In this document: positions 13,679 to 16,242 of the stretch, one piece after another | Layout: every line of letters starts with the position of its first letter | Position numbering within the stretch: the stretch's first letter is position 1 | DNA from: an uncultured Lachnospiraceae bacterium | Lineage (GTDB): Bacteria > Bacillota > Clostridia > Lachnospirales > Lachnospiraceae | Direction of reading: 5' to 3' | Assembly (NCBI GenBank): GCA_902803305.1 | Contig: CADCPL010000146.1 | Coordinates: 1-34,067 of the forward strand | DNA length: 34,067 nucleotides | Program-made: the position numbers and the translations under genes | The notes under the pieces: model-generated | Told to the model about the DNA's origin: nothing | Database searches by the model: none | What the model saw: only the letters and a program-made list of their open reading frames with translations

Positions 13679-14974
13679 TGCAGCATCATTTTCCGCGCTG
13701 CGGTAACAATCAATGATCCCGTCCGTCCTGGCCGACAGATCATCAAGTCTTACCGCGATCCTCTCAAGATCCTCACCTATCCTGCAAAGCGCCTTATCCG
13801 CGAACATCTGTGTGGATATCGTACACGCCATATCGGTTCTTACACTTTCAATACCCGCTTTAACCCTACGCAAACCTGCGATCTGGTCTCTCATCGTCCG
13901 CGCGGCAGCGCTTACGCCTCCGCCATCGAAATAAACGCTGTTTGAAAGAAGCGGCATTTCATCTGTTGCGACAGAGCATGCTGCCGCGATATGTTCGGCC
14001 AGTTTTGCGCATATGTGTCCCATGGTCGGCGCGATACATCCCTCAAGAAGCCGGTCCTGCGGAGTTGTAAGCGCAAGAGATATGGCACTTCCCGCTATGC
14101 GGGACATATCTTCCTTACCTCGACGCGTCAAAGGATCAAGTCCGCTGCACAATACTTCCGTAAGCCGTTCAAGCGCAATCGATACTGCCCCCTGCCCTCT
14201 TGTTGTTATAAAATCACCGTTTTCGTCAAATTCGTTGCATGTAAGCAGTGTTACCGAGGAATGCGCAGCCGCCGCCGAAGGATCGTTGGCCACATAGATT
14301 GCCGTACCGGCTATGGACGCAAGAAGTATGTTCACAAAATCATTGTATGCACTTATCGAAAGTATCTTCGGCGAAGCTATGGCTACCTCGTCTTTGTTCT
14401 GCGTCCTGAACTCATCTCCGAACCCCTGACCGTCATAGGATACACATTCCTTTATCCTCTCGCCCTGTTTGACCGTCACATACATCGCCATGTTTCCGCC
14501 CTTGGAATGACCGGTCACAACGATATCCCTGTATTTTCCGCATTCCAGTTCAACAAAATCATTTGCCGTCTGCTGTATATCGGTGTCAGAACAGAATGCT
14601 CCCTCAAAGTTGTCGGTCCATGCATCCTCCGTCCCGCCGGTCCCGCGAAACACTATCACGGGATCCTCATCCTTGGGATCGGTGTAGCAAAGCGCCCTTA
14701 CATTGTTTTCATCAAGCTTCCTGCTGACCGATATTTCTCCGAAATTCGGATTTTCTTTGATCCTTTTATCCATTTCGGAAAAAACGATGCAGACGTCGTC
14801 CAGGCTCATGCCGCCACCGGCGGCCGCCGGATATACGCTCTCATTCGTAAATCCTCCGGACGGATCCCTGAAAGAATCGATTATCTCTCCTATCGGCCTG
14901 TCGGACAGACATGCCGGTATATATGCAAAATTAGAAAGCAGCAGCAATTCCTGCTGAGTATATGCTCCGTCCAT
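13646..14974 (-). CDS. Mbeg1-like/DUF2974 alpha/beta-hydrolase (lipase class 3-like) with a C-terminal WXG100/LXG-like helical domain; candidate T7SS effector
   Basis: Nucleophile elbow VTGHSKGGNMA, with downstream YNDF and AAHSS as candidate Asp and His. The last ~95 aa are helical and end in CYRSAENDAAS, which mirrors EYRQAEEESS of the adjacent WXG100 protein. The ATG at 14972-14974 overlaps the upstream stop (TGATG); the track start at 14977 is a GTG. Confidence 0.7.
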   Translation of the reverse strand: MDGAYTQQELLLLSNFAYIPACLSDRPIGEIIDSFRDPSGGFTNESVYPAAAGGGMSLDDVCIVFSEMDKRIKENPNFGEISVSRKLDENNVRALCYTDPKDEDPVIVFRGTGGTEDAWTDNFEGAFCSDTDIQQTANDFVELECGKYRDIVVTGHSKGGNMAMYVTVKQGERIKECVSYDGQGFGDEFRTQNKDEVAIASPKILSISAYNDFVNILLASIAGTAIYVANDPSAAAAHSSVTLLTCNEFDENGDFITTRGQGAVSIALERLTEVLCSGLDPLTRRGKEDMSRIAGSAISLALTTPQDRLLEGCIAPTMGHICAKLAEHIAAACSVATDEMPLLSNSVYFDGGGVSAAARTMRDQIAGLRRVKAGIESVRTDMACTISTQMFADKALCRIGEDLERIAVRLDDLSARTDGIIDCYRSAENDAASLIAAQPSHV

Positions 14975-16242
14975 CACATCCTCACCGTATATGTACAGGA
15001 TCCGACAGTAAGCTCATCACCGTCGGAAAGTTCTCTGTCACTTACCTTTACGCCATTTACCCTTGTACCGTTCGCACTTGAAAGATCGCGTATAAAAACC
15101 CTATCCTCTTTTTCATACATTTCGCAGTGCCGCCTTGAGAGTGCATCATCATCAATCACCACATCACAATCCCCGCGCCCGATAGTCATTCTGCCGTCAA
15201 GAACGATCTTTATCACGCCACCTTTTGTCTTTTCAACAAGCTCTATCATACGTGTACTGCCGGTCAGAAGCCTTGTTGCCCTATAGCGCTCATCATCGGG
15301 ATCATCAAGAAAAAGAGTTTTGTTTTCATCCCGGCCAAGTTCATAATCATCAAAATATGAATCCTCTTCATCAGCAGCCGGAGCGGGAACCACACGTTCA
15401 TCACGTCTCCTCTTCCTAACGGATGCACCGATAATGACCGCGACAAGAAGCCCGAGCGCCATAAGCACCGCCGATATGATGAGCGGCTTTCCGGTCTCAA
15501 AGAATCCAGGCGTCTTATCGTATTCGTATATAATACGCTCCTGCGCTTCGCCCTCGTTCATATACATGTCGGCATCCACTTCTTCGCTGACAGCTTCCGC
15601 AGGTTCTGCGTATTCTTCCGCCGGCTCCTCATAGTTTTCCGCAGGCTCGTCGTATTCTTCATACTTTTCCCAGTTGACACTTGCATACTCGTCCATCGCG
15701 GCAAATATCTTCTCGGAGATCTGCCTGTCGACTTCGGCATCGGAGCCTTCAAATTCGGTCTCGTAAAACTTTCCTCCGCTTGTAACGGCTGTAGCAGACA
15801 GACTTTTCCTTGCTCCCGCGTTATCCTCCTGATCGAGCATGACAATATAAACAGGGTATTCGCTCCTGCCGGTCAGATAGTACAGCTCCTCTTTCTCGTG
15901 AAAGAGTGCCTCCGACTCAAGCCCGTCGGTAAACACCACTATGTCCCTGCATGCAAAATCGGATTCCTTCCATCTCGTGATAACAGAGCAGAGAGTATCG
16001 CAGAGATTGGAATCCTTTGGCGCAAATTCCAGTTTATCAACCTTATAAGCAAGGTCACCCGGGTCATTTTCATATTCCTCCGGCTCCTCAATATCATGCT
16101 CATACGTACTCAGACAGAATGTGCGGTCCACAGGGCTGTGGTAGAACATATACTTCAGCACAGCCCTGACAAGCTTCTGATTGACCGCACTTACGGTCGC
16201 ATCGTTATCCACAAGAACAAGCGTCTGTCCGCAAACATGCAT
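14974..16242 (-). CDS. vWA domain, acidic repeat linker, single TM helix and C-terminal FHA domain
   Basis: vWA landmarks: LVLVDNDATVS (degenerate MIDAS), IVVFTDGLES, VYIVMLD and AVTSGGKFYE. TM helix PLIISAVLMALGLLVAVIIGAS followed by RKRRRDER. FHA landmarks: TIGRGDCDVVI, SRRHCEM and SANGTRVNG. The likely ATG at 16240-16242 has GGAGG 11 nt upstream; the track start at 16248 is a TTG. Confidence 0.75.
   Translation of the reverse strand: MHVCGQTLVLVDNDATVSAVNQKLVRAVLKYMFYHSPVDRTFCLSTYEHDIEEPEEYENDPGDLAYKVDKLEFAPKDSNLCDTLCSVITRWKESDFACRDIVVFTDGLESEALFHEKEELYYLTGRSEYPVYIVMLDQEDNAGARKSLSATAVTSGGKFYETEFEGSDAEVDRQISEKIFAAMDEYASVNWEKYEEYDEPAENYEEPAEEYAEPAEAVSEEVDADMYMNEGEAQERIIYEYDKTPGFFETGKPLIISAVLMALGLLVAVIIGASVRKRRRDERVVPAPAADEEDSYFDDYELGRDENKTLFLDDPDDERYRATRLLTGSTRMIELVEKTKGGVIKIVLDGRMTIGRGDCDVVIDDDALSRRHCEMYEKEDRVFIRDLSSANGTRVNGVKVSDRELSDGDELTVGSCTYTVRM

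Follow-up and report, generated by a model that had tools for sequence, protein, structure and literature searches.

The subject of this analysis is a gene of an uncultured Lachnospiraceae bacterium, which lies in a stretch of 34,067 nucleotides (contig CADCPL010000146.1 of assembly GCA_902803305.1; the whole stretch is called the window) and encodes a protein with a von Willebrand factor A (vWA) fold, one transmembrane (TM) helix and a forkhead-associated (FHA) domain. The gene belongs to an eight-gene cassette on the minus strand, which runs from essC, encoding the motor ATPase of type VII secretion systems (T7SS), through a gene for a ubiquitin-like protein and four WXG-type genes to the vWA-TM-FHA gene and a gene for an Mbeg1-like lipase. 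In gut and rumen Clostridia, the vWA-TM-FHA family seems to recur in T7SS loci as a component that has not been described so far. Regarding its function, the balance of the evidence tips, if only slightly, towards a single-pass membrane phosphothreonine adaptor or regulator of EssC in a minimal T7SS cassette.

Architecture of the vWA-TM-FHA protein

The open reading frame permits a protein of 424 aa from a TTG at 16248 or of 422 aa from an ATG at 16242. The former is probably the true start, because a GGAGG is found 7 nt upstream of it and an exact match in the database has a length of 424 aa; residues are nevertheless numbered here from the ATG. The gene is translationally coupled on both sides, with its 5' end overlapping or abutting the stop of the upstream WXG gene and its own stop overlapping the start of the lipase gene. 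From the N- to the C-terminus the protein consists of the vWA fold, an acidic linker of 7-aa repeats, the TM helix, the basic stretch RKRRRDER, a disordered linker with a T-R-L-L motif and the FHA domain. An AlphaFold2 (AF2) model was built on an alignment of 43 homologues with 36-75% identity, the same set that was used for the analysis of conservation, and reached a mean predicted local distance difference test (pLDDT) score of 81.

A first-pass annotation, made by a model from the sequence alone, had proposed a vWA fold for the N-terminal part, and structure prediction supported it. The pLDDT exceeded 90 over aa 1-190, strands and helices alternate, and Foldseek aligned this part with vWA domains of the PDB over about 190 columns at E-values from 1e-8 to 1e-6, with ITIH1 (E 1.4e-8) followed by alpha2delta-1, collagen VI, ArnB, TFIIH p44, Rpn10 and vWF A3. 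Pfam and NCBIfam gave no vWA match in the N-domain of the window's protein; weak matches to Pfam VWA_2 were obtained for 9 of the 43 homologues (best E 1e-4), a profile search of the PDB with the N-domain returned only a marginal match to a collagen VI vWA domain (E 0.2), and distant relatives carry precomputed VWA domain matches. The extent of the domain had to be corrected from about 250 aa to about 190 aa, as the larger figure takes in the 55-aa disordered acidic linker. The metal ion-dependent adhesion site (MIDAS) occurs in a variant form, D12-N-D-A-T16 with T105-D106-G107, and departs from the canonical order of DxSxS, then Thr, then Asp, in agreement with the degenerate DNDAT read earlier. 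Among the 43 homologues D12 and D106 are kept, the third position of the motif is D or S, the fifth is T or S, and the Thr position (aa 78) is variable.

Two further features of this region were observed. The cysteines C4 (at least 90% conserved) and C98 (invariant, in DFACRD) mark the starts of strands beta-1 and beta-4, which are expected to be neighbours in the vWA sheet, and they could form a disulfide or a metal site. A helix after the vWA core (aa 181-196; window 15655-15700, minus strand) carries the conserved residues M183, Y186, W191 and Y194 in the consensus MDEYAxxxWxxYEE; it is without counterpart in the signal-peptide-bearing relatives described below, in which a beta-rich module takes its place.

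The acidic repeat linker, the single TM helix and the RKRRRDER stretch had also been noted before and were recovered. The linker contains a heptad-like EEPAE(x)Y repeat that was detected by Tandem Repeats Finder (TRF) as a 21-nt unit present 3.2 times at 15594-15660; its length and sequence differ across the family while its acidic character is kept. Residues 253-275 are the sole strongly hydrophobic segment according to the Kyte-Doolittle scale. The net charge is negative before and positive after the helix in nearly all relatives, the basic cluster being found family-wide, and a second disordered linker leads from this cluster to the FHA domain. Sortase anchoring was considered and rejected: weak Gram_pos_anchor matches in 10 of the 43 homologues reflect the TM helix and basic tail, there is no LPXTG, and a 140-aa domain follows.

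The FHA domain was clearly recognised by Pfam (PF00498, aa 353-414, E 3.8e-19, 69.3 bits against a cut-off of 20.7), and Foldseek matched it to FhaA and GarA at E 5e-10, the best scores in the PDB. Its phosphothreonine pocket (G355-R356, S369-R-R-H372 and N391-G392-T393) corresponds residue for residue to that of Mycobacterium tuberculosis FhaA, and R356, S369, H372 and N391 are invariant in the 43 homologues, which bears out the landmarks GR, SxxH and NG claimed initially. About eight residues before the FHA fold, within a linker that is otherwise unconserved, the T-R-L-L motif stands out with invariant T323 and L326 and at least 90% conserved R324 and L325; the exact TRLL is found in 108 of 127 close homologues, and hhalign placed T323 opposite a conserved Thr of the signal-peptide-bearing sister family. 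The form pT-x-x-L is preferred by many FHA domains. We infer that T323-R-L-L326 is a candidate phospho-acceptor and FHA docking motif.

Some relatives are devoid of the FHA domain. These proteins (P0141, P0142, P0143, P0145, P0146 and P0152) have 336-383 aa and comprise the vWA domain, the TM helix and a basic tail, and P0141, P0142, P0143 and P0146 carry T-[QEM]-L-L-F at the C-terminus. In the one FHA-less locus that was examined (L024, with P0141 at 10001-11065) the same cassette is present and its EssC has an FHA domain. The TxLL motif hence appears to be independent of the protein's own FHA domain, because the FHA-less relatives keep it and the EssC of this locus could offer the corresponding domain.

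The T7SS cassette and its conservation

The cassette has the generic features of a T7SS locus, i.e. an EssC-type ATPase, two WXG100 proteins above threshold and a ubiquitin-like protein (Table 1). As stated in the first-pass annotation, EssC begins with an FHA domain (aa 16-81, GR..SRKH..TNG, Pfam E 2.4e-8), the only one recognisable in it; it continues with two TM segments at about aa 129-169 and shows only two clear Walker A motifs (aa 491 and 804). The FtsK_SpoIIIE match is strong (E 2e-39), and TIGR03928 scored 526 bits, under the 778-bit cut-off of the T7SSb equivalog. The window's EssC is short when compared with the approximately 1230-1670 aa of EssC in related cassettes. Its FHA signature, GR..SxxH..NG, is kept in all tier-1 loci, and both FHA domains of the window, in EssC and in the vWA-TM-FHA protein, retain the phosphothreonine pocket. 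The small protein p78 alone had no Pfam match, and BLASTP found no similarity to annotated YukD. A profile made with its positional orthologues matched ubiquitin/ubiquilin at E 2e-12 to 1e-6 and YukD at E 0.05, and 4 of 13 orthologues match Pfam YukD, which supports the prediction of a ubiquitin-like fold.

Searches with Pfam and NCBIfam detected no EssA, EssB or EsaA in the cassette or elsewhere among the scanned open reading frames of the window, and a canonical T7SSb assignment was rejected. The only membrane proteins of the cassette are EssC and the vWA-TM-FHA protein. The lipase, a putative T7SS effector, has its catalytic domain near the N-terminus (aa 103-227) with about 200 aa after it, and contains 14 cysteines. 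In its domain order it looks like the lipases with reverse domain arrangement, which are recognised T7SS substrates (PMC11217815). Two of the four WXG-type proteins may be partners of the lipase rather than core EsxA/B.

Table 1. Positions of the cassette genes and of the parts of the vWA-TM-FHA protein in the window
Feature	Position	Strand	Basis
vWA-TM-FHA coding sequence	14974..16248	-	open reading frame; exact database match
vWA-fold domain, aa 1-190	15673..16242	-	AF2, Foldseek, hhalign, weak Pfam matches in homologues
Disordered acidic linker, aa 196-250	15493..15657	-	AF2 pLDDT <50 over aa 202-237; TRF
Single TM helix, aa 253-275 (PLIISAVLMALGLLVAVIIGASV)	15418..15486	-	Kyte-Doolittle 19-mer 2.91; AF2 helix 252-282
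Juxtamembrane basic cluster RKRRRDER, aa 276-283	15394..15417	-	read from sequence
T323-R-L-L326 motif	15265..15276	-	conservation; in disordered, predicted cytoplasmic linker
FHA domain, aa 331-421	14980..15252	-	Pfam PF00498; Foldseek; FhaA alignment
EssC-type FtsK/SpoIIIE ATPase, 1228 aa	17733..21419	-	Pfam/NCBIfam; motif reading
Predicted ubiquitin-like (YukD/TsxB-type) protein p78, 78 aa	17477..17713	-	profile with positional orthologues
Four WXG100-type genes	16245..17496	-	Pfam, TIGR03930, motif reading
p96, WDG motif	17206-17496	-	motif; below Pfam WXG100 threshold
p101, WRG motif	16904-17209	-	weak match, below Pfam WXG100 threshold
WXG95	16559-16846	-	Pfam and TIGR03930
WXG104	16245-16559	-	Pfam and TIGR03930
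Mbeg1-like/phospholipase-like alpha/beta-hydrolase, 443 aa	13646..14977	-	Pfam PF11187 E 5e-15; weak NCBIfam SA1320-family match

A homologue search yielded 145 proteins that share this architecture and measure 398-503 aa. Few of them are named, and then only with the generic label 'FHA domain-containing protein' from metagenome-assembled genomes (MAGs) of Lachnospiraceae. In a synteny scan with one genome per species, 15 loci were found, all in rumen or gut Lachnospiraceae MAGs, and 15/15 have the same cassette in the same gene order between DJ-1 and argG. The cassette also surrounds P0116, P0108 and P0120, at 34-39% identity, and P0132, P0139 and P0141; the immediate flanks differ at the P0132 and P0141 loci. 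The arginine-biosynthesis setting of the cassette (window 11401-25367: argC, DJ-1, cassette, argG, GNAT, argJ, argB, argD) recurs in most related genomes (among loci L001-L015, L016, L019, L024 and L028), even at about 35% protein identity, which points to a long vertical inheritance of the cassette at one chromosomal site.

The flanks of the window are of housekeeping character, with tig, clpPX, lon, arg genes, htrA and a two-component system. Just upstream of essC a 171-aa secreted protein is encoded (21592-22107, minus strand), bearing a signal peptide as well as an Ig-like domain of the Big_2 family; it is probably outside the cassette, because a conserved counterpart exists in no genome but the closest one (L001, 48% identity). 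Downstream of the lipase (12554-13603, minus strand) follow p108, without domain match, and the Cys-rich p160 with one N-terminal hydrophobic segment. Both recur in the majority of the 15 close genomes and are absent from more distant cassettes, and they may be lineage-specific immunity or accessory genes.

A signal-peptide-bearing sister family and the question of topology

The distant relatives of the N-domain became accessible by an exhaustive search with a hidden Markov model, whereas a word-indexed homologue search with the same profile had returned four fragments only. At least 667 clusters (50% identity) were found at E <=1e-3, among them 329 at E <1e-10 and 32 at E <1e-30. Most of these relatives have about 500-550 aa, typically about 510, and represent a sister architecture, in which a Sec-type signal peptide and a module of about 50 aa precede the vWA domain, followed by a beta-rich module, an acidic linker, the TM helix, a basic cluster, the motif T-x-hydrophobic-hydrophobic and the FHA domain. 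Their MIDAS is D-x-S-x-S followed by T and D, with all five residues invariant. Alignment of the two families by hhalign covered 432 columns at a probability of 100% and E 2e-55, and they are homologous over their full length. The eight-gene cassette of the window also surrounds one signal-peptide-bearing member, P0157.

The genomic context of the sister family was analyzed in 47 metagenomic loci, 20 of which extend at least 5 kb upstream. Almost everywhere a PP2C phosphatase gene lies directly 3' of the vWA-TM-FHA gene, and a Hanks kinase with tetratricopeptide repeats is usually found nearby. At least one T7SS marker was detected in 30 of the 47 loci. Among the 20 well-flanked loci, 13 are of a T7SS type with EssC, YukD and WXG genes, usually accompanied by a LytTR regulator and DUF4176, while 7 are Tad-pilus loci, in which a DUF6382-FHA (TsxJ-like) gene is located directly upstream and essC is missing within 10 kb. 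In this second locus type (L026 at 8864-11638; L055, L057, L061, L063, L072 and L074) the vWA-TM-FHA gene comes right after the DUF6382-FHA gene and downstream of Tad/Flp pilus genes, together with PP2C and Hanks kinase and with neither essC nor WXG genes within 10 kb. Locus L062 resembles it in TadB, PP2C and kinase and shows no DUF6382-FHA match; the protein of the Tad-type locus L026, P0174, has no signal peptide. The association with essC and WXG100 genes that had been predicted thus held in all close homologues examined and in most distant ones, and broke down for about one third of the well-flanked distant relatives, those at Tad loci. Overall, the family would be a phospho-signalling module that is attached mainly, and not exclusively, to T7SS loci.

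Such a distribution could also be expected from a general envelope-signalling module, in which an outward vWA sensor and a cytoplasmic FHA output cooperate with the PP2C/Hanks-kinase pair; it would not belong to the secretion machine, would only share its loci with surface machines (T7SS or Tad) and would influence these indirectly, for example by transcription via LytTR. The presence of the sister family at both T7SS and Tad-pilus loci with phosphatase and kinase, the frequent LytTR genes, and the mostly transcriptional action of the actinobacterial Esr pathway (PMC13622651) are in its favour. We regard this explanation as unlikely, given that the window's clade lacks PP2C, kinase and LytTR and yet keeps the gene coupled between the WXG genes and the effector, and that the cassette includes no transcription factor.

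The loci also bear on a possible link to the lipase, whose gene lies directly downstream of the vWA-TM-FHA gene in every eight-gene cassette examined. The protein might be an accessory of this one effector, either an immunity protein that is anchored in the membrane and neutralises the lipase by its outward vWA domain, or an export adaptor for a substrate of reverse orientation. This would suit the constant gene order, the lack of another conserved candidate immunity gene downstream across the cassettes, and the recognition of reverse-arrangement lipases as T7SS substrates (PMC11217815). None of the 47 sister-family loci contains a detectable Mbeg1 lipase, however, and the gene persists in them alongside PP2C and kinase genes; hence, the family is not tied to the lipase. 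Moreover, immunity genes normally come after, not before, their toxin gene, and neither a conserved phosphothreonine-binding FHA domain nor the TxLL motif has an obvious role in immunity. A function restricted to the lipase therefore seems highly unlikely, and regulation of EssC remains the favoured explanation.

The sister family is also informative for the topology. A signal-peptide heuristic was positive for 96 of 110 sister members and for none of the 127 proteins of the window's clade or their 19 nearest neighbours, and 146/146 scored signal-peptide-less homologues begin at strand beta-1. For the window's protein the lack of a signal peptide, already noted at first reading, was confirmed, as the end of the WXG gene closes the reading frame 2 codons before the ATG and leaves no space for a hidden one. 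Because the sister family has a Sec signal peptide, the ancestral protein is predicted to have exposed the vWA domain outside and the FHA domain in the cytoplasm, which agrees with the positive-inside rule. The window's clade has lost the signal peptide and two flanking ectodomain modules. The topology that had been flagged as unusual thereby turned into a sharper problem, since relatives export the vWA domain by means of a Sec signal peptide that is lost in this clade. The loss may have been recurrent, because the small subgroup with the Tad-associated P0174 is also without signal peptide.

In this regard the cysteine content of the vWA domain was compared. Its median is 2.55% in the signal-peptide-less clade, where 0/127 proteins have one cysteine or fewer in this domain, versus 0.57% in the signal-peptide-bearing relatives, where this applies to 59 of 104; the cytoplasmic FHA domains have 2-3% in both families. 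The high content relative to the signal-peptide-bearing relatives suggests that the vWA domain of the window's clade may now fold in the cytoplasm. As a proxy for topology the cysteine content is weak in this organism and gives a hint only, because exported and cytoplasmic proteins of the window differ little (pooled 1.18% and 1.61%) and the putatively T7SS-exported lipase reaches 3.16%.

It might be possible that the signal-peptide-less vWA domain simply stays in the cytoplasm and that the helix is not a conventional N-out/C-in span, or that the protein itself is handled by the T7SS. The former would match the cytoplasm-like cysteine content, the loss of the signal peptide together with the flanking beta-rich ectodomain modules and its possible recurrence in the P0174 subgroup, while the equally cysteine-rich lipase, a predicted T7SS export, would suit the latter. 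A single hydrophobic segment of 23 residues cannot leave both ends on the same side, though, the basic cluster after the helix is conserved, and an FHA domain outside the cell would find no phospho-ligands; we hold these arrangements to be quite unlikely. The topology of this clade may be explained by N-tail translocation aided by the acidic linker, by export through the T7SS, or by a non-canonical arrangement. Specifically, that the surrounding T7SS carries the cysteine-rich vWA domain across the membrane, or that the topology is non-canonical, appears very improbable. If the former were true, the type VII system would itself insert or expose a membrane protein associated with its apparatus, and an outward ligand-binding tip would be wired directly to EssC via FHA/phosphothreonine contacts.

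Comparison with known systems

FHA and vWA components of T7SS have been reported. Garrett, Higginson and Palmer (2024) defined the variants T7SSc-j and proposed phospho-regulation (PMC11217815). In T7SSe/f/j a separate FHA component, TsxJ (TseJ, TsfJ, TsjJ), consists of DUF6382 and an FHA domain (PMC11217815). The window's protein is similar in being an FHA protein inside a T7SS variant cluster, whose EssC also has an FHA domain with conserved phosphothreonine pocket; furthermore TsfJ is membrane-anchored, and a T-x-L-L-type motif precedes the FHA domain by few residues in the published TsxJ alignment and in a DUF6382-FHA neighbour. However, the N-domain of TsxJ is DUF6382 instead of vWA, TsfJ has two TM helices with both domains in the cytoplasm, TseJ has none, and the two genes stand side by side in Tad-associated loci, which makes them distinct families. 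Identity with TsxJ was rejected accordingly, as 0/43 members match DUF6382 at E up to 1 and hhalign aligns the FHA part only.

TscE of T7SSc is a vWA component with the Ser/Thr kinase TscD and the PP2C phosphatase TscF, and is predicted to be soluble and cytoplasmic (PMC11217815). It resembles the present family as a vWA protein of a T7SS variant, and the sister family has such kinase and PP2C neighbours. TscE has no TM helix and no FHA domain, though, and the EssC of T7SSc is without FHA domain whereas the window's EssC has one. With its TM helix and FHA domain and no kinase or PP2C in the window, the protein was set apart from TscE on the basis of the published description.

Outside the T7SS, a parallel in composition is offered by PpkA/PppA/Fha1 of type VI secretion systems (T6SS; see also the discussion in PMC11217815), where a periplasmic vWA domain, a TM helix, a Hanks kinase, a PP2C phosphatase and an FHA scaffold are grouped around a secretion machine. 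Phosphothreonine-FHA binding switches on T6SS assembly in Pseudomonas aeruginosa and Agrobacterium. There, PpkA unites the vWA domain with the kinase, the FHA protein is soluble, and the secretion system is another one; in the window's family a single membrane-spanning chain carries both vWA and FHA, and the kinase is a separate protein or missing. In the Esr pathway of Actinomycetales, experiments have shown that Esx/T7SS is controlled by a kinase/phosphatase pair together with a vWA protein and an FHA output, with a Thr phosphorylated in a disordered region beside the FHA domain (PMC13622651, bioRxiv 2026). Esr belongs to another phylum and distributes its functions over separate proteins, namely a beta-propeller sensor, MoxR, vWA protein, kinase, phosphatase and an FHA protein with pseudophosphatase domain; MoxR and the beta-propeller sensor are missing from the window's system. 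The FHA protein ArnA and the vWA protein ArnB of Sulfolobus (PDB 8s05, 5a8i) likewise work as a pair, and Foldseek matched both to the model (ArnB vWA E 5e-7, ArnA FHA E 3e-7). They are soluble cytoplasmic regulators of the archaellum without TM helix, i.e. of unrelated biology.

In its membrane arrangement the protein is reminiscent of EssB/YukC and YscD/PrgH, single-pass proteins of secretion machines with one cytoplasmic and one external domain. EssB of T7SSb binds the FHA domains of EssC, and the cytoplasmic domain of YscD has an FHA fold; Pfam Yop-YscD_cpl scored 51 bits (cut-off 33) on the window's protein. EssB differs by its pseudokinase domain and N-in orientation, YscD by the N-terminal position of its FHA domain and its periplasmic ring-building modules, and neither contains a vWA domain. 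Identity with EssB/YukC was rejected, since Pfam and NCBIfam gave no such match, the N-domain has a vWA fold, and the single TM helix is the one feature in common.

Phospho-signalling through FHA and vWA domains in connection with T7SS is thus a known concept (PMC11217815, PMC13622651). No description of a fused vWA-TM-FHA component of T7SS was found in the literature searched, and no curated family of Pfam or NCBIfam covers this architecture. The suggestion of a new T7SS component stands with regard to the fused transmembrane architecture and the family, and needs to be restricted in so far as separate FHA (TsxJ) and vWA (TscE) components had been described before (PMC11217815). The new details comprise the fusion of both domains in one transmembrane protein, the large size of this unnamed family, the minimal cassette of eight genes and the signal-peptide loss.

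Proposed role and its significance

A regulator of EssC is conceived here from observed properties: how the protein is built and conserved, the synteny of its gene, and the signal peptides and PP2C/kinase neighbours found in its relatives. The C-terminal half, with the basic juxtamembrane stretch, the disordered T-R-L-L linker and the FHA domain, would be cytoplasmic and in phosphothreonine-dependent contact with the EssC motor. Either the FHA domain of EssC would read pT323-x-x-L, or the protein's own FHA domain would read a phosphothreonine of EssC or of another copy next to it. The N-terminal vWA/MIDAS part would be the ligand- or partner-binding end, which pointed outward in the ancestral signal-peptide-bearing form, and an event on this side could be coupled to assembly or activation of the secretion ATPase. 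In the fuller loci the adjacent kinase and PP2C would set the phospho-state, whereas in the window such enzymes might act in trans or the contacts might have become phospho-independent. The EssC contact, the phosphorylation of T323, the topology of the signal-peptide-less form and the effect on secretion are what we infer from these properties.

Several observations weigh against this proposal. Since 7 of the 20 well-flanked distant relatives belong to Tad-pilus loci, where essC is missing within 10 kb, the family is not strictly T7SS-specific. Much of the synteny of the close homologues reflects shared ancestry and cannot be counted as independent association, because most loci still adjoin arginine-biosynthesis genes. 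In the window's family the MIDAS is altered, with DNDAT in the window's protein and a variable Thr position at aa 78. Under the positive-inside rule a folded domain of 190 aa has to cross the membrane without signal peptide, and the cysteine-rich vWA domain of the signal-peptide-less clade would fit folding in the cytoplasm, weak as this proxy is. Finally, neither a Hanks kinase nor PP2C was found among the scanned open reading frames of the window, as had been annotated. The phosphorylation-gated assembly suggested in the first-pass annotation receives indirect support from the PP2C and kinase neighbours of the sister family, and is not backed by enzymes in the window itself.

For bacteria other than mycobacteria, Staphylococcus and Bacillus, knowledge of T7SS variants comes only from surveys of gene neighbourhoods in cultured genomes. 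Being the sole membrane protein of the cassette besides EssC, the vWA-TM-FHA protein suggests itself as the candidate that takes the place of EssA, EssB and EsaA. The loss of the signal peptide, while the TM helix and the positive-inside signal are kept, represents a small puzzle of membrane-protein biogenesis. Furthermore, the sister family with its PP2C and Hanks kinase might well provide a Bacillota counterpart to the threonine-phosphorylation switch of T6SS and to the actinobacterial pathway from Esr to Esx.

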